A stretch of 64,000 nt of DNA from positions 3,072,001-3,136,000 of the forward strand of contig CM000151.3 in assembly GCA_000004695.1 (NCBI GenBank), given 5' to 3'. Made by a program: the position numbers and the translations under genes. Source of the stretch: Dictyostelium discoideum. Its lineage: Eukaryota. The notes beneath the pieces were generated by a model. That model was not told the origin of the DNA and searched no databases. It saw only the letters and a list, made by a program, of their open reading frames with translations. Shown here piece by piece: positions 578-33,209 of the stretch (the stretch's first letter is position 1; the number at the start of each line of letters is the position of its first letter).

Positions 578-4565
<3,988 letters not shown>

Positions 4566-6092: not shown

Positions 6093-6347
6093 TCATTCTT
6101 TATTGAAAAGTCTTTTACGATTACTAACCTTTTGTGGTGTTTTTGATATTGGTAAAAAAGTGTCAAAATCAATTTGATTATTATTACCATTTTTATTATT
6201 ATTATCATTATTATTATTATTATCATTAATATTTTTTAAATTATTATTATTATTATTATTTTTATTTTTATTATTATCACCATTATCACCATTATCACCA
6301 TTATTATTATTATTATTATTATTATCATTTTTATTATTAATAATTTG

Positions 6348-6378
<31 letters not shown>

Positions 6379-6750
6379 ATAATTTGATTATTATTTTTTT
6401 TATAATTTAATAAATAATTTTTATAATTTATTAATAATTGATCTTTTAAATTTGGTAATTCAGTGATAATTGTACCAATTAAAGATTCAATTTGATTATC
6501 CCACCAAAATGGAATTTCAATGATTGTGATATTATTATTCTTACAAATTAATCTTTTTTCATTATCACGATTTTGATATATTGTAGAATCACCAAAACGT
6601 GGAACATCCATATAATGTTGTTTACCTTGATATTCAAATGCTAATGATAATTGAGGTATAAAAAAATCTAAATGAAATGAATGATTACTTAATTGTTGAT
6701 ATTTTAAATTTGGATGTCTATAATCTTCAAATATTTCAATATTATTATTA

Positions 6751-6785
<35 letters not shown>

Positions 6786-8328
6786 TTGAATAAATAAATG
6801 ATTTAAATAAATTGATAATAAACGTTGTGATGATTTTTTACCAGGTTGTGAATAAATATGATAATCCCATTTCTCTTCTGGATATAAAATCTCTAAACAA
6901 TTAAATAATCCACCATGTTTTTTAACAAGTTGTGATCCACCAATATATTGAATTTGTGAATTTGAAACTCTATACCAATCTTTAATATCTAAAATATTAT
7001 AATATTCTCCTGCAAATTTAAAAAATTCTCTTAAAGTTTTTAATTCATCTTTAATTTCTTCAATTTTATTATTTTTATTATTATCATTATTATTATCAAC
7101 ATTATTTTTATTATCATTTAATATTGGTAAATTATTAAATTTCCAAACTTTCCAATCATAATCATCTTTAAAAACTTCTATAATCACTTTTGCTGGTGAT
7201 CCATTATATAATAATAATAAAGATGATCCATTATTTTTAACAAAATCATTTTTACCAATACCATACCAATGGTTATATTCTGTGAATCCTATTTGTTTAC
7301 CTAACCATTGTAAATATTGTTTTTGATTTTCAATTGGTTTCCAAAAATTTCTAATAAATAATAAAAAATAATAATAAAAAAATTAATAAATAATTAATAA
7401 ATTAATAAATAATTAATTAATAATAAATTAATAATAAATAAGGTATACCTTGGAGCTGATGTAAATAACCAAGGTTTAAAATTATAATTTGGATAATAAC
7501 TACAAAGAAAACCATAAATTGAATCATTAAATTGTGCAATTATTGGACGACCTTTAAATTTTATAAAATCATTTTTTTGAACTTTATACCATTGTTTAAG
7601 ATATTCATTATCAGTTTCATTTTCATCACTATATCGAAACCTATCAAATTTACGATGAGTTTGATCGAATTTCATATCAGTTGTAAAAGATTGAATAAAA
7701 GAATCAATATTATCTTGATTTAACCAAAAATATTTATTCCTATCAATTGATTTTACCAATTTAACTCTATCCCATTCTTCTTTAGGGTATGCAAATTTTA
7801 ACATCTCATAAAATGAATATTCAAAATTATCTCTAAATATTTGTTGTAATTTTAAAATTGGTTTACTAATTTCACTATTTTTAAGTTCTTTATTCTCTGA
7901 AAATATTTTTGTAATATTAACATTATACCAATCATTTAATTCTATAATATTTAATTCCCTTTATTATTAAAAGTAAAAAAAAATAAAAAAAAAAAAATAA
8001 AAAGAAAAAAGAAAAAAGAAAATTATTAATATTATTTTCTAAAAAAAAATAATAAATAAATAAATAAAAACCTTTGAACAGAAAATATTGTTTCTTTAAT
8101 TTCATCTTCAGTATTTTTAATTATTATTTTATTATTATTATTTGGGGTTAAATTGGTGGGGGTATTTTCAGTTGTTAATATTGTTTCATTGGTATTATTA
8201 TTATTAATAGTAGTAAAAAAATGTTTTTTGTTGAAATTAAAATGTATGGGATGTGGTTGTTTTTGGAATGATGGTATTAAAAGCGTTTTTGGAAGTTTTC
8301 GAAAATTATTATATACTAATCGTATCAT
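6093..8328 (-). CDS. Protein with a C-terminal DUF559 / Vsr-like PD-(D/E)xK nuclease-fold domain. Three exons: 8072..8328, 7449..7958, 6093..7350 (about 675 aa), with Asn-rich low-complexity inserts.
   Basis: The C-terminal exon carries FHLDFFIPQLSLAFEYQGKQHYMDVPRFGDSTIYQNRDNEKRLICKNNNITIIEIPFWW. This matches the DUF559/very-short-patch-repair-like signature (hydrophobic-E-x-D/Q-G-x-x-H ... D-x-x-R-D ... hydrophobic-I-R/E-F/I). Exon joins are supported by phase (CCAAG|GTATAC ... TTATTAG|A and CAAAG|GTTTTT ... AAAG|G). The second donor, GTTTTT, is weak. Confidence 0.55.
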
Positions 8329-14764: not shown

Positions 14765-16337
14765 CTAATCTTGTTTACTTGAATAATATTTAGTTTTTGA
14801 ATAGTCAACCTTATTCTTTAACAATACACCTTTTAATTGTTGTGCAATATTTTCATCACCTTTTCTTACATTAAAATCTTGAGATTGATCAAAATATTGA
14901 ACTGCTTTAAATTTAGGTAATTTGATAAATGGTGATACATTTTTAGTAAAATTTGAAAATTGTGCTTCTTTAATATTTAATTGTGAAATTTCATTTAAAT
15001 CATCATTATTATTATTATCATCAGTTGGTATTGTAATTTGTTTTTTTGAATGATTTTCATTAATTTCTAAATCATTTTTAACACCAATTTGTCTTAACCA
15101 TTTTGATTCAGATATTGATTGAGTATTTACAAAAGAAGCAATGAAACCACCAGGATTTAATAATGGTATTGCCAATTGTAATAAATCTCTATAACAATCT
15201 TTACTTGTAAATATACCAAAACCATTACCTTTTGTACGAGGTGGTGGATCCAAAACGATTACATCAAATCTTGTGGATTTAGATTTTAAATAATCCAATT
15301 GTGTGAAAACATCTTTTTGAGAGAATTTATGATAATTTGTATCTAAACCATTCAATTTAAAATTTCTATCTGCAAATTTAAAGTTTTTAATTGACTCATC
15401 AATATTATAAGTTTGAATTTTATGACCATTGACACAAGGTGCAATTGAAAATGAACAAGTATGTGCAAATAAATTTAGAATTGAACCACCATTTCTACCT
15501 TTGAAAAGGTTTGATATAATTTGTCTATTATCTCTATGTTCTAAATAAAATCCTGTTGATTTTAAATCCAATAAATCTATATAAGATTTCATACCATTCT
15601 CTTCAATTATCAATGTTGTTTGATTGGCTTCATCTAATTCATAACCTTTTCCTAAATAAAGTTTAGACATTTGTTGATCTTTTGTACTAATTTTCCAATA
15701 TATTCCTTTTTTACCAGTTTCATTTAATAAATATTCTGATATATATCTAACATGAGGATGCCAATGATCTGAAAGTGTCTAATAAATTTGTATTAATATA
15801 TGTATATAAAATAAATTAAAAAAAAAAAAAATAGGAAATAATAATAATAATTACAGTAATTTGTAAATAATCAGCAAAAACATCAACTGTTAATCCTGAT
15901 AAACCATCTGAACCATCATTAACTAATCTATATGCTGACTTTGGTCCAATATCAATAATTTTATCATTTGAAAGTTTTTCTCTAAGTTCCATCGCTTTTT
16001 TTAATGAATTTCTATTTTTGTTTTAAAAAAAAAAAAAAAAAAAAAAAAATTAGTATAAGATATAATTGTGAAAATAATATTATTGATGATTTTTAACATA
16101 CTTAATATAATCTCTTGAAAATATTTCATTACAATAGTTCATGATTCTAATAGGGGGTTCAAAGTTTGTATCAATTAAAGCTATACCTTTGGCTGAACCA
16201 TCTTTTAATGTGAAATCAAAATCACAAAATCCATTACTTTTTCTAAAAACTTTTATAAATGATTTACCAAGAGAATATGGTTTGGAATTTAAACTAGTTT
16301 GCAATGATCCCAATAAATTTTTCATTGACCCTGCCAT
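14765..16337 (-). CDS. Class-I SAM-dependent RNA methyltransferase of the bacterial RlmI/YccW type (N-terminal PUA-like domain plus Rossmann MTase). Three exons: 16102..16337, 15855..16011, 14765..15778.
   Basis: The PUA-like N-terminus reads ...KDGSAKGIALIDTNFEPPIRIMNYC... Across exons 2-3, ...RLVNDGSDGLSGLTVDVFADYLQIT | TLSDHW... corresponds to the RlmI 'EGDGLPGLVVDRYGD-LVVQ' block. SAM-MTase motifs follow: LDLKSTGFYLEHRDNRQ (compare RlmI ...GYF-DQR-NR), LNLFAHTCSFSI (motif I-like) and FDVIVLDPPP (motif IV DPPxF-type). Donors GTATGT and GTAATT and acceptors ATAG|A and TTAG|A give consistent phases (2+1, 0+0). Confidence 0.75.
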
Positions 16338-18094: not shown

Positions 18095-18328
18095 TTAAAG
18101 ACCATATTCAAAATCAATGAAACATTGATGAATATCATTCATATCACTCATTACAAATGGTCCATATTTAAATATTGGTTCTTGAATTTGTTTTGATGAA
18201 AAGAATAAAAGTCTTGAATTTGATTTAGATGTTATTGAAACTCTATTAAAGGTACAATTTTCATTATCTATATCTATATTATCACTACCACCACTATTAT
18301 TATTTATATTACTATTATTATTTGTACA

Positions 18329-18361
<33 letters not shown>

Positions 18362-18545
18362 TGATTTTCTATTAAATACAATAAGTTTTCCAGGACCAAT
18401 AGGTTTTGAATTATTTATTGAAACTGGACCATCTAAAACCAATAAAAATGAACCAAATGTTTCATTTATATCAATTTCAAATGGAGTAGTAGATTCTTTT
18501 TTACAAGTATATTCTTCATTATTTTCACCATTATTATCATTAGTA

Positions 18546-18612
<67 letters not shown>

Positions 18613-19366
18613 CACCACCATTATCACCATTATCTGCACTTATAAGTTGATTGTTATTATTATTATTATCAGTATTTAATTTTATATCAATATCTAAAAC
18701 TTGAGGATTTAAACCTAAACTTTTTAAAGGACTTTTATGTAATATCTTTGTTTCATTATCTAAATATTGACCAGAGATAACTTTAATCATGAAATCAGTA
18801 TTACCATTTGTACGTTGAATTAATGGAATTGATTCATTCGATACATATTGGTAATCTGGTTCAACCATTTTCAATTGTTTTGGTAAATTTAACCAATAAT
18901 GAATGACCCAAAGTTTAGAGGTTGTCGAGGATGGCATCTCACTATGTACTATACCTTTACCCGATAGTATCCATTGAAGATCACCTGTCTTTAATACAAC
19001 TTTATTACCTAACGAATCATTATGTACCATCAAACCTTCCAACATATATGTCACCAATTGAATACCACGATGTGGATGATCTGGGAATCCTTTTTCATAT
19101 TCTTGAGGTGAATTGGTATTAATTTCATCCAACAATACAAATGGATCAATATGTTGTAACTCTTTATCACCACCTATTAATCTATTCAATACAAATCCTC
19201 CACCGTCACACATATTCTTTTCAAATCTATATACTTTAAATAATGAATTACTCTCTATTAATCCATTCTTTAATACTTTAACAATAACTTCTTTTTCATT
19301 TTTATTACAATTAATTTCACCACCACCACTACTACTACTACTACTACCACTAGTACTAATTGTACA

Positions 19367-19401
<35 letters not shown>

Positions 19402-19465
19402 TGTTATTATTATTATTAATGTTATTATTTCTTTGGACTGGTGTTGAGAAGCAATCCATCATCAT
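18095..19465 (-). CDS. Pirin (bicupin) family protein, single exon, with long Asn/Ser low-complexity insertions
   Basis: GGGFVLNRLIGGDKELQHIDPFVLLDEI...GFPDHPHRGIQLVTYMLEGLMVHNDSLGNKVVLKTGDLQWILSGKGIVHSEMP matches the pirin N-terminal cupin signature (P-H-R-G-F/I-x-x-V/T-Y-x-L-x-G ... GD-Q-WMTAG-GI-HSE). The C-terminal cupin is interrupted by poly-N runs. Confidence 0.8.
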
Positions 19466-21272: not shown

Positions 21273-22824
21273 TTAAACTTTATTAACCAATTAATTATTT
21301 TTATTTATTTTTTTTTTTTTTAAAAAAAAAAAAAGATATGGTACCAGAAATAGAAAGAAAGAAACCACATTCAAATTATAGCCAAGTGTTGGCATGGTTT
21401 AGTGATTATCCTTCAAAGGAGCATGTATATGGTATACATCAAATTGTAAATAAAAAACAAGCAATGGAAAAGAATAATAGAAAACAACAAATTTTAAGAG
21501 AACAAGTGATTTCATTAAATCGAGGAGGAGGAGGAAGTTCTAAAGGAAAAAAGAAAAAAGAAAAAGAAGAAGAGATAAATGATAATGTAGAGGAATGGTT
21601 AGCTCCAACTAGAATTTCAAATATTTTAAGACAATTAATTAAATTTCAACATTTGGAAGATTTAGAAATGTACGTTCCAACTGATGGTGTCATATATAAA
21701 GATTATATAAATAATTTATGTAATAATAGTAATACACATAATCATTATCAAATTATTCAACAACAATTACAACATTTAAGAGAACAACAAAATATTCAAC
21801 AAAATAATAATAAAAATAATAATAACAACAACCCAACAACCACAACAACTACAACAACCACAGCAACAAGTAGTAATAATAACAATAATCAATCACCACC
21901 ATCTAGAGTACCAAATGGATATAATAATCAAGTATTTGATGATGAATCATTATTTGACTATAACACAGCTATTAGTTCAATACCACCAAAGTGGAAATCA
22001 TTGATTATTATGATACCTTTGAAATTGGGTGCAGATAAATTAAACTCAACCTATATTGAAAAATTAAAATTATTATTAAAATTACCACAAAGTTTAGGTT
22101 TTATTGGTGGTAAACCAAAACAATCATTTTATTTTATTGGTTTTCAAGATGATCAAGTCATTTATTTAGATCCTCATTTTGTCCAAGAAAGTGTTAATCC
22201 AAATTCATTCGATTATTCAAATGTAAGTTTTATAAATAATAATAATAATAATTCATTCGATTATTCAAATCTAAGTTTTATTAATATATATTTATATATA
22301 TATTATAAATAATAATTAAATAGACATATAGTGGATGTATACCGCAAAAAATGCCATTTACACAATTAGATCCATCTTTATCAATTGGATTTTATTGTAG
22401 AGATCAAGCAAGTTTTGAAGATCTTTGTGATAGATTATCTGTAATTAATAATTGTGAATTTCCAATCATTTCAGTTTGTCAAAAGTTACCAGATTATCAA
22501 ATCGAATGTGAATTGGTTGATGATTATGCAGAGAGTGAAACAACTGAAATGCTTGCAATCACTATTGCAAATGGTGGAAATAATCATTCTTGTATTCCTG
22601 AAAATATTGTTGTTGATGATGAAGAATTTATAGTTCATCATCATATTCCCTATAATCCAAATAATAATCAAAATAATAATCAAAATAATAATAATAACAA
22701 CAACAAAAACAACAACAACAACACTAACCAACAACAAACTCCAAACTATCCACCAAAATTAAATACTTATCAACCTGATTTTTCTAGTGATGGTGAAATC
22801 GATGATTTTACAATGGTTGGCTAA
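20131..22824 (+). CDS. atg4: Autophagy cysteine protease Atg4 (C54 peptidase). Five exons: 20131..20167, 20298..20684, 20759..21184, 21336..22222, 22324..22824.
   Basis: The catalytic Cys is in ...DIGWGCMLRTGQMILARAL and the catalytic Asp-Pro-His in ...VIYLDPHFVQ. Flanking blocks read SFYNLYRN-Y-PTEPPHFSPSPIWLMGRCYTS, YSQVLAWFSDYPSKEHVYGIHQIV, GFIGGKPKQSFYFIGFQDDQ, LDPSLSIGFYCRDQASFEDLCDRL. All are colinear with ATG4B. Splice phases are consistent (CAG G|GTAAGT...TTTAG|AT; ...AATT|GTATGT...AAAG|AT; AAT G|GTATGA...AAAG|AT; AAT|GTAAGT...ATAG|ACA). Exon 2 carries a Gln-rich N-terminal extension. Confidence 0.85.
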
Positions 22825-27905: not shown

Positions 27906-29266
27906 ATGATTTATTTAAAAATATTAGAAAAATTAAATCAAGCAATTTGGTTATTCGATATAAATAAAAGAGTATTGATTTGGGGTAATCAATCATGTAA
28001 AAAATATAAAAATATTGAATCAATAACATCATTATTTAATAATTCAAATTTAATAAATGATATTAGAAATGGTAAATCAAAACATGAACACATCGATATA
28101 ATAGAATCCAACGAAAATGGAGAGATTTTAAAACAAATGATATTTAAATATTCATCAATACATATTAGTGATATGGATGCAAGACAATTATATTTGGATA
28201 CTAGTATTAATTTATTAGTAAATCAAGATAGTCATTATTTAGATTACGAAGGTAAACGAATTTTTATATTAGTAGAAGCAATTGAAGAAATTAAATTTAT
28301 TCAATCACCATTATCATCATCAATTGAAAATCATAATATAAATAATAATCAAAATAATCAAAATTCTGTAAATATTAATAGTAGTAATAAAGGACAATAT
28401 AATAGACCAGAACCATCAAACATGGGATCTTGGGAATGGAATGTTCAAAATGATACAACTAAAGCATCTAATCAATTTTATAAAATAATTGGTATTGAAA
28501 ATGATTTTAATAAAAAATTGAATTTTAATGATTTTATTAATAAACTTGGTATTCAAGAAATTCAACCAATAATTAATAATTGTATAGAATCAAATAGTTC
28601 TTCATTTGAATATCCATTAAGAATTAATAGAAAAAATGATAATTTAGTTAGATATATTCAATTAAAGTTTGTATTATTATTATTATTATAATTATCATTT
28701 TTATTAATTATTTATTAATTTCCAAACTTTTTTTTTTATTTTTTTTTTTTTTTTTCAATGAAAAAAAAAAGAGGTGAAATTATTAAAAAAGATGATAAAG
28801 TTTTTAAAGTTTTAGGAGTTTGTCATGATTTTAGTGAAATTCAAGAAGCAAAAGATAAATTAGAAGAAGAGAGTAAATTTGTTGAAGCATTAATTGGTTG
28901 TTTAAAAGCAGGCATTGTTGCATGTAATTCAAATGGTGATTTAACACATTTCAATAAGAGTGCACAAGATTTACATGGATTAGAATTGAACGATAAAACC
29001 GATAGAAAACAATTATTAGATCAAATTTTAAAATGTTATAGATCACCATATGAACAAATAAATTTAGAAAAATCAGGTACACCAATTATTAGAGCATTAA
29101 GTGGTGAATTTATAAATGATCAAGAAATTATAATTACTCCAACTTCAAATCAACAACAATCATCATTATCAAAATCAAATAGACCAAGATCACAATCAAA
29201 TTGTTCAAATGGTAATAAATCACAAAATAGATTATCAAAAAATTATAGTACAACAACAACAACAAC

Positions 29267-29330
<64 letters not shown>

Positions 29331-32282
29331 TCAATTTCACAACAACAACAAACACAAGTATCAACACAACAAACACAACAACAACAAAATACAACAAATG
29401 GAATAGGTGGTGCAACAACATCAACAACAGCAGCAGCAGCAACAATAACATCACCACAACAAATACCAATTGCAACTAAAATTCCAACAAAGATAAATGA
29501 TAATGAATTTTTAGTTTTGGCAAGTGGTCAAGAGATTGTTTCAAAAGATGGTAAAACCATTGGTGCATTTGTAGCCTTACATGATATTACTGAAAGAAAA
29601 CGTAATGAAGTTATACTAAAGAATGCAACAGAGGAGGCACAAAGGGCTAATCAATTAAAAGGTGAATTTTTGGCAAATATTAGTCATGAATTATTGAGTC
29701 CAATGAATTCAATCATTGGTATGGTTGGTTTATGTTTAGATGTTGCACCAAGGAATCTAAAGGAAATGTTAAATGATGTTGTGGAGTCGTCAAAGATTCT
29801 ATTGGATTTACTTCACCAAATTTTAGATTTCACAACATTGGAATCAAATTCATTGGCAGTTAGACCTTTCCCATTCAAGTTACGTGATACATTCAATCAA
29901 TTATTTAAAGTTTTCTATACACGTATCATTGAAAAGAAGATTAGTTTAACCTTTTCAATCGATCCAAATATTGCCGATGATTTCTATGGTGATCAAAATC
30001 GTTTAAAACAAATCCTTTCAAATCTAATTGATAATGCAATAAAATTTTCAAATTCTTCAAATATAAATAATTCAATTTCAATCATTGTTGAACAATTAAC
30101 TCATAATCAATTTAAAAAATATAAAGACTCTTTTAGATCAAATTCAAAGACTCATAGTAGATTAAATTCACATGATGATTATAGTATCGATGGTGATTAT
30201 GATGATCAAGATAATAATGATTCTTATTTTGGTAGAGATATTAATGTTTCAGATAATGAATCAGCTGTTGGTGGTTTTAGTGAATTAGATGAAAAAGATA
30301 ATAGTGATGATGATGATGAAAATGATGATGAAAATGATGAAACTGATGAAAATGATGATGATACCGACGACGATACATCATCAAACACTTCAAGAAATAA
30401 TATAAGTAATAATTTATTATTTCATAATAATACCAGTGGTGGTGGTGGAGGTGGTATTAATAAACGTGAAAAATTTAAAAAAAAAGATCGTGAAGGGTTT
30501 GTTAATCTAAAATTTTCAATTAAAGATCGTGGTATTGGTGTACCAGAGGATAAACATGATTTCATTTTCGATAGATTCTTTCAAGTTGATGGTTCATATA
30601 GTCGTGTTCAAGGTGGTGTTGGTTTAGGTTTAAGTATTTGCAAAAAGTTAATTGAATTCTTTGGTGGTGCAATTTGGTTTGAAAGTGAAGCATCACAAGG
30701 TTCAACTTTTCATTTCATTCTCTCAATTAAAAGTGTTGAAGCACCATCACCAAAATCACCTTCATTACAATCAAGTAATGGTTCAATCAATTCAACCACT
30801 AAATTATTTGAATCTAGTAGATTAAAAAATGAAATTTATATTCCATCACTTCCAAATGTTCAAACTAAAAAAGTGAAAAAAGATTCAAATGATAATGGTA
30901 ATAACGATTCAACAAATTATGGTATTTCTTTAAGTAATAGTATGAATAATATAAATATCAATGGTAGTACATTAAATAATAATAATAGTATTAATAATAA
31001 TAATAATTCAAATGATAATGGTCCATTAACAAGTCGTACACCATCAAATAGTTATTATAATTTCATTGCCTCTTTAAATAATACATCATTAAAATCTTCA
31101 AGTCATAATACTCTTAGTTCAAGTCCAACTGGTTTTAATGGTATTTCAAATTTAAATATTAGTGGTTTAAATAATCTTAGTAATTTATCAAATAATCCAA
31201 ATAATCTTAATAATATAATTGGTAATACTAATGGAAATAATAATACCAATGGAAATAATAATAGTGGTATAAGTTTAAATAATAGTAATAATAATATTCA
31301 AACTCCAAATGGTTTAAATAATAGTCGTGGTTCAAGTTTAATTTCAACACCTTCAACTAAAAATGTTAAAAAACAACATAGTTGTCCAATGGATTTAATT
31401 CAAAGAATTCATTCAATTTGTACACCACGTGGTCCAATTTCCAAAGAATGTGGTTTAAATAATTTACCAGCTTATTCACCACCAAAATCACCTGGTCGTA
31501 GTTTAAGTCACGGTGGTAAAAATTATTCAAATTTAATTAGTACCCCTAGAGGTGGTGTTGGTTATAGTTCACCACCTATCAACAGTAGTAGTAGTAGTGG
31601 GGGTGGTAGCAGTACAAATGGTAGCAATAGTGGTAATAGTAGTGCAAATAATTCAACTCCTTCATCATCTTCATTATCCTCAACTCCATTAACATCTTCA
31701 AATACACCATCACCAGTTTCAATATCATCAAATAATGTTAATAATAATAATCAACAACAACAAACACAACCAATTTTATCACCAATTTTACCATTAAAAG
31801 ATAACTCAATTGATATCTCTGATTTAAATAATATTAATAGTTTAACACCAAATTCTTCAAATTCAACCTCAACAAATGTAACTCAAAGCAGTTCAAATAT
31901 TATTAATAATGGTAATAGTATAACAATTATAAATAATAATCCAGTTACTCCAAATGGTAAAAAAATAGTTATAGTTCCATTATTAAGTTTACAATCTGCT
32001 TCATCACCAAAACAATCACAACGTGGTTATTCACCAAAACAGCAATACTCTCCAAAACAATATTCACCAAAACAACAATATTCACCAAAACAATATTCAC
32101 CAAAACAGCAACAACAACAGCAACAACAACAACAACAATTAGAACAATTGAGTGGAAGAATGTCACCACATAAATCCAATTTAAGTAGTACAAATCTTCA
32201 TCATATTCATCATCATCATATTCATCAACAACAATCTCAACAACATAATAATACTACTGTTCATTCAAATAATTTAATTTTA

Positions 32283-32371
<89 letters not shown>

Positions 32372-33209
32372 CACTACAAATACAAGTAATAATCATACAT
32401 CTGATCCATCAAAATCATCAAATTCAACACCTGAAACATCACCACCAATTAGTTCACCAAGAAGCAATAATAATAATAATTGTAGTTTAACTACAATAGT
32501 AGGAGTAACAACACCACCACAACCATCATCAACAATTACTACACCACAATTCCAATCACCACCAATTTTATCAGGAAATAGTGGTAATATTAATTTATTA
32601 AGTAGTAATGGTACAAGCAGCGGTGGAATTGAAATTAGTGGTAGTCAAATGATTCCACAAAAAGTATTGGTAGCAGAAGATAATACAATGAATCAAAAAT
32701 TAATAAAGACATTATTAACTAAAAGAGGTTTTGATATTACCATTGCAAAAGATGGTAAACAAGCCTTAGATTTCTATCATGAAAGTAAAAATAAATCAAT
32801 ACTTTATGATTGTATATTAATGGATATTCAAATGCCAGTTTTATCAGGTTTAGAAGCAACTTGTGCAATTCGTGAAATCGAAGCAAATGAAGGTGGTCAT
32901 ATTCCAATCATTGCTGTAACTGCTCATGCAATGAAAGGTGATAAAGAAAAGTTTTTAGAATCTGGTGTTGATGATTATGTAACAAAACCAATTAACCCAA
33001 AGTTATTATATGAAGTAATAAATACTCAAATCTGTAAATATATTGAAGAAAATCGTTCATCATCTACAATAAATGAAAATAAAAATACAATTAATAATAA
33101 TAATAATAATACAAATAATAATAATAATAACAATAATTCAAGTAACCCTGTTAATAATAATAATAGCAATAGTATTGATGCTACTCAACAAGAATTAAAT
33201 AATGAATAA
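27906..33209 (+). CDS. Cytosolic hybrid sensor histidine kinase (PAS - HisKA - HATPase_c - receiver). Two exons: 27906..28666, 28772..33209 (about 1730 aa), with very long N/S/Q-rich linkers.
   Basis: PAS-like N-terminus, exon-2 start ...GEIIKKDDKVFKVLGVCHDFSEIQEAK. The H-box is LANISHELLSPMNSIIGM. The N-box is LKQILSNLIDNAIKFS. G1 is IKDRGIGVPEDKHDFIFDRFFQVD, and G2 is [35 protein letters not shown]. The receiver is KVLVAEDNTMNQKLIKTLL...DCILMDIQMPVLSGLEA...IPIIAVTAHAMKGDKEKFLESGVDDYVTKP. The proposed donor AA|GTTTGT at 28667 is weak, and the acceptor AAAAAAG|A is at 28771. Confidence 0.85.

Follow-up and report, generated by a model that had tools for sequence, protein, structure and literature searches.

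A helical-repeat protein of Dictyostelium discoideum with a Vsr/EDxHD-type nuclease domain related to phage homing endonucleases

The gene DDB_G0273543/DDB_G0273481 of Dictyostelium discoideum lies on the minus strand at positions 6093–8328 of the stretch of 64,000 nucleotides analysed here (contig CM000151.3, positions 3,072,001 to 3,136,000; hereafter the window, to which all coordinates refer). The splice model of the gene has three exons, at 8328–8072 (with the ATG at 8328), 7958–7449 and 7350–6093 (including the stop codon, 6095–6093), separated by two introns of 113 nucleotides (8071–7959, GT..AG, with the donor GT at 8071–8070) and 98 nucleotides (7448–7351, GTATAC..TTAG). The spliced coding sequence of 2025 nucleotides encodes 674 amino acids, and an exact-sequence look-up found the product to be identical at every residue to XP_644598.1 (Q557I2) of D. 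discoideum AX4. This match establishes that the gene is real and that the weak donor of the first intron, proposed in a preliminary description of the locus, is correct, although the product is one residue shorter than the 675 claimed there. The gene is annotated as 'hypothetical protein' only. DDB_G0273481 is the twin of DDB_G0273543 in the chromosome-2 duplication, and the two AX4 copies are identical.

The protein consists of a leader (residues 1–71; 8116–8328), four helical repeats, a nuclease domain of the Vsr/EDxHD-type PD-(D/E)xK fold (residues 424–561; 6435–6848), an Asn-rich low-complexity tail of about 90 residues, evident from the translation (residues 565–655; 6153–6425), and a short C-terminal motif, LPISKTPQKVSNRKRLFNKE, recognized by comparing tails among dictyostelids (residues 656–674; 6096–6152). 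The preliminary description had placed the nuclease motif in the last 70 residues, which belong to the tail and the C-terminal motif, and had found no motif in the 500 residues upstream, where the four repeats lie.

The fold of the domain was established by modelling. The peptide quoted in the preliminary description, LAFEYQGKQHY...IPFWW (residues 492–539; 6501–6644), was defined from the translation, the AlphaFold2 secondary structure and conservation, and spans strand beta-3 (LAFEYQG), H501, a helix with R517-D518-x-x-K521-x-x-x-C525, strand beta-4 and PFWW. A domain profile built without the two closest orthologues scores 144 bits on the window domain, which places this peptide far beyond chance. 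The AlphaFold2 model, based on an alignment of the domain from 23 homologues (A1), has a mean predicted local distance difference test score (pLDDT) of 84.5 and a predicted template modelling score (pTM) of 0.79, and displays the alpha-beta-beta-beta-alpha-beta core typical of PD-(D/E)xK nucleases. The closest structures are 1cw0, 3hrl and 3r3p, which are those given for the 'VSR, DUF559' group in a census of the PD-(D/E)XK superfamily (PMC3424549); by core and by structural neighbours the domain belongs with Vsr, DUF559 and I-Bth0305I. The original assignment to a DUF559/Vsr-like nuclease fold thus stands at the structural level and fails as Pfam membership: no Pfam family matches any part of the window protein even at E ≤ 10, and DUF559 (PF04480), Vsr (PF03852) and RAP are absent among the matches listed for 128 individually scanned relatives (the 25 most matched families, extending to families matched by one member). 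NCBIfam likewise has no match for the nuclease domain.

The sole Pfam model with recurrent similarity is DUF2726 (PF10881), an uncharacterized bacterial PD-(D/E)xK family often found near mobile elements. It is matched at E ≤ 1 by 54 of the 128 relatives (best E = 1.8e-5), mostly below threshold, although one relative, P0029, scores 28.6 bits, above the gathering cut-off of 24.7 bits. The window protein itself has no match to this model, and the matches of the relatives cover only its C-terminal third (positions about 70–125). There are also differences from Vsr. The structural Zn site of Vsr, a Cys/His cluster, is not present in the window domain, in which only C525 is conserved and the GxxH segment has no conserved Cys/His cluster around it over 288 instances of the domain; I-Bth0305I also lacks this site (PMC3239194). 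Furthermore, the window gene has no link to a cytosine methyltransferase, and its product is a eukaryotic protein that carries a repeat array.

Over the same 288 instances the putative active site is nearly invariant: D484 is kept in 286, E495 in 281 (with Asp in 4 more), G498 in 281, H501 in 282, D518 in 284 and K521 in 281. Position 497 is Gln in 219 instances, His in 48 and Asn in 16, position 431 is Gln in 187 of 196, and D484, E495, H501, D518 and K521 are invariant once viral sequences are added (minus-strand codons: Q431, 6825–6827; D484, 6666–6668; E495, 6633–6635; Q497, 6627–6629; H501, 6615–6617; D518, 6564–6566; K521, 6555–6557). In I-Bth0305I the EDxHD residues E170, D196, N208, H213 and D222 correspond to E25, D51, H64, H69 and D97 of Vsr, and a conserved acidic residue was noted where Vsr has F62 (PMC3239194). 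Mapped by motif order and secondary-structure position, Q431 would correspond to E170 and E25, D484 to D196 and D51, E495 to the conserved acidic residue of I-Bth0305I at the F62 position, Q497 to N208 and H64, H501 to H213 and H69, and D518 to D222 and D97. D484, H501 and D518 appear in the order and in the secondary-structure elements expected from the two enzymes, and the window domain shares with I-Bth0305I the ordered residues D...E-x-(N/Q/H)-G...H...D; the spacing from Q497 to H501 is 4 residues, compared with 5 in I-Bth0305I.

Judged from the sequences, this pattern is that of a working metal-dependent nuclease rather than of a decayed fold. The latter had been raised in the preliminary description and would make the protein an adaptor in which the Vsr-like fold is kept as a nucleic-acid- or protein-binding module. 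FASTKD4 sets a precedent, as it retains a Vsr-like pocket whose mutation is without effect; unlike the window domain, FASTKD4 carries Asn where the His would stand, and it is reported to be inactive (PMC11879112). Of the residues mapped onto the catalytic set of Vsr, D484, H501 and D518 are kept in 282–286 of the 288 instances, whereas the positions of E25 and H64 are occupied by Gln431 and Gln497, as might be expected of an inert scaffold. The loss of the KxDG lysine motif in some ligase-fused relatives (see below) also indicates that enzymatic decay occurs in the family. We nevertheless consider an inert domain unlikely, as D484, E495, H501, D518 and K521 are kept in at least 97% of the instances across eukaryotes, and the choice of Gln, His or Asn at position 497 parallels Asn208 of the active I-Bth0305I.

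Sequence-level relatives of the domain were found in phages. Residues 421–564 match the PHROG families phrog_559 (E = 1.7e-13), phrog_9084 ('homing endonuclease', E = 5.5e-13), phrog_7140 ('intron encoded nuclease', E = 9.4e-7) and phrog_3339 (E = 0.0036); the PHROG annotations are predictions and not experiments. A tblastn search of 50,697 phage genomes identified the domain in 164 records (best E = 2e-11) from phages that infect mainly Staphylococcus, Enterococcus, Bacillus and Listeria, a few of them annotated as 'putative group I intron protein', 'intron-encoded nuclease' or 'homing nuclease'. The homologue of Staphylococcus phage vB_SurM-PSU4 is flanked by pieces of the gene for the terminase large subunit, as is classical for a homing endonuclease carried by an intron. 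The EDxHD homing endonucleases, which are encoded in phage introns or inteins (I-Bth0305I; Protein Data Bank (PDB) entry 3r3p), are bipartite, with an N-terminal DNA-recognition module and a C-terminal nuclease, a layout that the window protein would share, and it is phage families annotated as homing or intron-encoded nucleases that the window domain matches. I-Bth0305I carries N-terminal NUMOD and helix–turn–helix motifs, in place of which the window protein has four novel helical repeats.

The nuclease core is distributed well beyond phages. In IMG/VR, 123 viral loci were confirmed, giant-virus bins among them, and in a number of these (L004, L016, L040, L067 and others) tandem treble-clef zinc-finger (DUF4379), DUF723 or CapR modules precede the core; such arrays are alternative recognition modules on one catalytic domain. 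Among prokaryotes, sampled with one genome per species, 276 loci from very diverse bacterial and archaeal phyla were found. The full architecture of repeats and nuclease occurs in two bacterial genomes, a deltaproteobacterial metagenome-assembled genome (L093, contig JAUXGL010000049.1), with six very regular repeats before the nuclease domain, and Bacterium UASB270 (L094, DF820476.1), with at least three. Their presence suggests either horizontal transfer between bacteria and eukaryotes or contamination of metagenome-assembled genomes.

This patchiness over phages, giant viruses and many bacterial and archaeal phyla, the two bacterial genomes with the complete architecture and the phage homologues in introns would all be in keeping with a selfish element that is still mobile, be it a free-standing homing endonuclease gene or a gene that arrived by recent horizontal transfer. 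The locus speaks strongly against this explanation, which we regard as largely refuted. Genes for EDxHD endonucleases reside in group I introns or inteins or are free-standing mobile open reading frames, as are the phage homologues found here, whereas the window gene is fixed in the nuclear genome and has two spliceosomal introns of its own. Its composition is typical of Dictyostelium (the window, at 14–29% G+C, resembles nuclear DNA of this organism), its neighbours are ordinary nuclear genes and no second copy exists within the 64-kb window. Every sampled dictyostelid has exactly one orthologue, in which the repeats are positionally conserved. DDB_G0273543 is a gene of the host and is conserved throughout the dictyostelids sampled. 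The protein appears to be a domesticated descendant of a mobile nuclease family that occurs in phage introns, in giant viruses and patchily in bacteria and archaea.

The region ahead of the nuclease domain is made up of four repeats, scored here with a repeat hidden Markov model (HMM) built without Dictyostelium sequences. Repeat 1 (residues 72–158; 7742–8115; 27.7 bits, i-E value of 1.2e-10) is the most divergent, spans intron 1 and has an insertion; repeat 2 (residues 163–257; 7347–7729; 44.9 bits) has an insertion of about 20 residues; repeat 3 (residues 258–332; 7122–7346; 63.6 bits) is the most canonical (FWKPIENQKQYLQWLGKQIGF..HWYGIGKNDF..NGSSLLLLYNGSP..); and repeat 4 (residues 344–427; 6837–7088; 56.3 bits) follows an Asn-rich linker and packs directly ahead of the nuclease domain. 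The ends listed are those of a first profile, and the HMM used for scoring places repeats 1 and 4 at residues 72–157 and 344–425. The best of 200 shuffled controls reached 5.2 bits, compared with 27.7–63.6 bits for the four repeats. An HMM built from the repeat-nuclease family as a whole, whose members carry 1 to 12 repeats, has 75 positions and about 670 instances, with the consensus YWkd.eNQr.FLd.L.kkLniks.eDWY.is.kqI...GG.gLL.kYgGSL..lL...YPEy.W...kF...PKG. An AlphaFold2 model of repeats 3 and 4 (pLDDT 90.1, pTM 0.78) shows five helices with pLDDT above 95 in repeat 3, and the helices of repeat 4 run from H90-115 to H147-154. Intron 2 (7351–7448) lies at the boundary of repeats 2 and 3 and interrupts the codon for R257, where repeat 2 ends.

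The same repeat compared between dictyostelid species scores 198 (repeat 2), 259 (repeat 3) and 185 (repeat 4), with 81–83 for repeat 1, whereas repeats compared within one protein score 35–81; repeat 2 has the second repeats of P. violaceum and H. album as positional orthologues. This positional orthology across Dictyostelia indicates that each repeat has kept its own identity since the dictyostelid ancestor, the outcome expected if every repeat touches its own section of a conserved target. Among Pfam models, DUF4046 (PF13255), an uncharacterized repeat, has faint hits on the repeat arrays of relatives P0004, P0013 and P0014. At about 9e-4 it is matched by 2 of the 128 relatives, and the window protein has no match. 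All of these members are linked by the repeat profile described here, and an equivalence of our repeat unit with DUF4046 is tentative; a literature search for DUF4046 or PF13255 found no papers. Searching for homologues with the repeat profile brought up only 2 fragments.

Repeat arrays were also seen in other company. A giant-virus-like contig of 117 kb (L001, 8001–9782) encodes six of the same repeats followed by a different C-terminal domain (pattern VDG...FHGDYYHG), which the tools used did not confirm as Vsr-like. The surrounding genes encode dUTPase, DNA ligase, dNK and two viral-type rhodopsins. For the giant-virus protein P0013, a true Vsr domain at the C-terminus was considered on account of its FHGDYYHG pattern; this was unconfirmed by the tools used and does not enter our evidence. 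A bacterial contig of 269 kb (L002, 6001–7500) encodes a protein of six repeats without a nuclease. Its gene adjoins an RHS/YD-repeat toxin gene and is near ArdC and TrfA-type plasmid genes, a context which indicates that the repeat module also circulates on bacterial mobile elements.

In eukaryotes the family is larger than the preliminary description, which called such domains unusual in nuclear genes, had supposed. There is one orthologue per species in six dictyostelid species (37–85% identity), at least five paralogues in Cavostelium apophysatum, members in a heterolobosean and at least three paralogues in a single further protist, with eukaryote-type nuclear genes on its contigs. Searches of cluster representatives with the domain profile returned 522 at E ≤ 1e-30, 9,817 at E ≤ 1e-10 and 37,633 at E ≤ 1e-3; these include many unnamed metagenomic proteins, and the distribution given above is that of members named or checked by their context.

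In about 12 of 278 sampled members (approximately 4%), the nuclease domain is followed by a C-terminal ATP-dependent DNA ligase, as found by a motif scan and by inspection of tails. The ligase matches Pfam DNA_ligase_A_M (PF01068) and DNA_ligase_OB_2 (PF14743) and, almost end to end, NCBIfam NF006592 'DNA ligase' (PRK09125; E = 1e-50 to 1e-56, down to 8e-56), which we take to be the minimal Lig E type. Repeats, nuclease and a complete ligase are joined in P0029, P0035, P0050, P0099, P0115, P0076, P0025 and P0010. The fusion of the nuclease to a DNA ligase argues that the repeat-nuclease family works on DNA. A literature search on the combination of a Vsr-like domain with a DNA ligase turned up nothing of relevance. 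Some family members (P0019, P0027, P0028, P0029, P0030 and P0031) have the nuclease domain twice in one polypeptide, and the two copies may form an intramolecular dimer for double-strand cleavage.

The dictyostelid proteins have no ligase domain and end shortly after a 'PIP' motif. The C-terminal LPISKTPQKVSNRKRLFNKE corresponds to P-I-P-K-x-Y-Q-K-x-x-T-N-K-K, which is common to all dictyostelid orthologues, and ligase-fused relatives have a similar 'PIP' linker at this position, ahead of the ligase motif DPTGWW.SEK.DG.R. The motif may have been left behind by a ligase fusion since lost, or it may serve for docking or as a nuclear localization signal. A ligase exon or gene beside the Dictyostelium gene was considered and rejected, as four ligase modules searched against the window by tblastn gave no match.

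A different substrate has to be weighed at this point. The protein could be an organellar RNA-binding or RNA-processing factor, a functional analogue of the RAP-domain proteins (the FASTK family, apicomplexan HPR-RAP and Chlamydomonas OPR-RAP proteins), in which the repeats would read a mitochondrial transcript and the Vsr-like domain would cleave or hold RNA, for example at processing sites of the polycistronic mitochondrial transcripts of Dictyostelium. The layout would be the same, with an organelle-type leader, a variable number of helical repeats (1–12) and a C-terminal Vsr-like domain, and several paralogues in some protists (at least five in Cavostelium, at least three in one sample) are typical of organellar RNA-binding repeat families. 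A Vsr-like fold that acts on mitochondrial RNA has been documented for FASTKD4 (PMC11879112), and in structure the window domain is nearly as close to RAP domains as to DNA enzymes. However, the structural match is slightly better to DNA enzymes (8.2–8.7) than to RAP domains (at most 7.7), and Pfam RAP (PF08373), FAST_1 and FAST_2 have no match in the protein or among the matches listed for the 128 relatives. The window repeats differ from those of RAP proteins in that they are five-helix units of about 75 residues without any helical-repeat Pfam match, and the catalytic-type residues are far better conserved in the window family. The annotated sequence-level relatives are all phage DNA nucleases, the fusion partner is a Lig E-type DNA ligase and not an RNA ligase, and dictyostelids have a single copy rather than one family member per transcript. 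On balance, an RNA factor of this kind is the main rival to a DNA endonuclease, though the less likely of the two.

We favour a reading in which DDB_G0273543 is a domesticated, repeat-guided DNA endonuclease of the Vsr/EDxHD type that is probably mitochondrial, and we put its probability at roughly one half. To the gene model, repeats, fold, residue conservation, phage-nuclease homology and ligase fusions described above, this reading adds catalytic activity, a DNA substrate, a mitochondrial location and target recognition by the repeats, all of which we infer. The location is suggested by the leader, which has a presequence-like start followed by an Asn/Thr-rich spacer. Its first 40 residues contain 7 Lys or Arg and no Asp or Glu, and 38 of the 56 complete members in which a leader precedes the first repeat have at most one acidic and at least three basic residues in it. 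By this compositional hint, the leader of DDB_G0273543 probably fits a mitochondrial presequence.

In the proposed mechanism, the basic, acid-free leader would import the protein into the mitochondrion, where the four five-helix repeats (about 75–95 residues each) would anchor it to a specific nucleic-acid target. On the model of Vsr and I-Bth0305I, Mg2+ would be bound by D484 and E495, the general base would be H501, and Q497, D518 and K521 would complete the active site. The enzyme would then nick or cleave a defined site or structure of the organellar genome, with DNA as the most likely substrate, and the cut would be resealed by a ligase, which some relatives carry as a fusion and Dictyostelium would have as a separate protein. 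The suggestion of an organellar or horizontally acquired DNA-repair or nickase-like protein made in the preliminary description is compatible with the presequence-like leaders, the ligase fusions and the phage and bacterial relatives.

Several observations weigh against this domesticated DNA endonuclease. The first catalytic Glu of Vsr and I-Bth0305I is replaced by Gln (Q431), and Gln (Q497) also occupies the position of Vsr H64 and I-Bth0305I N208. No sequence-level match to Vsr, DUF559, I-Bth0305I (3r3p) or any other PDB chain was found: searches of all PDB sequences gave no real match, either by phmmer with the protein or with profiles of the domain (A1), the repeat (A4) and the domain with viral sequences added (A5), Vsr and DUF559 (1cw0 and 3hrl; PF03852 and PF04480) are matched by neither Pfam nor profile comparison, and an hhalign comparison of the domain profile with E. 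coli Vsr was insignificant (probability 0.7%). The repeats of D. discoideum are near neutral (net charge −4 to +2), compared with a family-wide mean of +2.8. Ligase fusions are a minority and do not occur in Dictyostelium, and P0029, P0059, P0082 and P0150 have a degenerate KxDG adenylation motif. Finally, a literature search found no mention of DDB_G0273543/DDB_G0273481 or Q557I2; a paper on the Acanthamoeba mitochondrial proteome mentions no such nuclease.

The nuclease fold and the phage relatives are already known. The repeat module, its pairing with this nuclease (with or without a Lig E-type ligase) and the breadth of the family in protists appear to be undescribed in the literature searched. 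What is new is thus the packaging, with novel helical repeats ahead of a fully conserved Vsr/EDxHD-type site in a large protist family that extends to two bacterial genomes, and the family would illustrate how eukaryotes domesticate a homing nuclease of the phage type. Should mitochondrial DNA be its substrate, the protein would be a new factor in the maintenance of organellar genomes in Amoebozoa, Heterolobosea and other protists, accessible in a tractable model. If it acts on RNA, it would be a candidate nuclease for mitochondrial transcript processing in Dictyostelium and, alongside the RAP proteins, a second independent case in which helical repeats and a Vsr-like domain are combined. With either substrate, the repeat is a candidate new nucleic-acid-binding module. 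A bolder proposal is that the five-helix units of about 75 residues are a new modular nucleic-acid-recognition repeat, arrays of which (1–12 units) guide a Vsr-type nuclease to a site in the organellar genome, and that in some lineages the fused Lig E-type ligase reseals the cut. We regard this as a long shot; if true, it would describe a natural 'cut-and-reseal' enzyme without a described counterpart and possibly a new scaffold for programmable nucleases. The interest of the family would be much greater if the repeats prove to embody a modular recognition code.

The ordinary nuclear genes around DDB_G0273543 include those for an M1 aminopeptidase (1350–2762, minus strand), an S-adenosylmethionine-dependent methyltransferase (14765–15670, minus strand), a pirin (18095–19465, minus strand), an Atg4-like C54 peptidase (21338–22312, plus strand) and a hybrid histidine kinase with a receiver domain (28758–33209, plus strand); there are no tRNA genes in the 64-kb window. 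Low-complexity sequence is a further feature of the protein. The Asn-rich tail is conserved in the closest species only, when tails are compared, and a poly-Asn run of 17 residues (residues 444–460; 6768–6818) lies inside the nuclease domain, where it separates the first helix from strand beta-1; in the D. citrinum orthologue the insertion is shorter. Low-complexity insertions are evidently tolerated by the nuclease fold.

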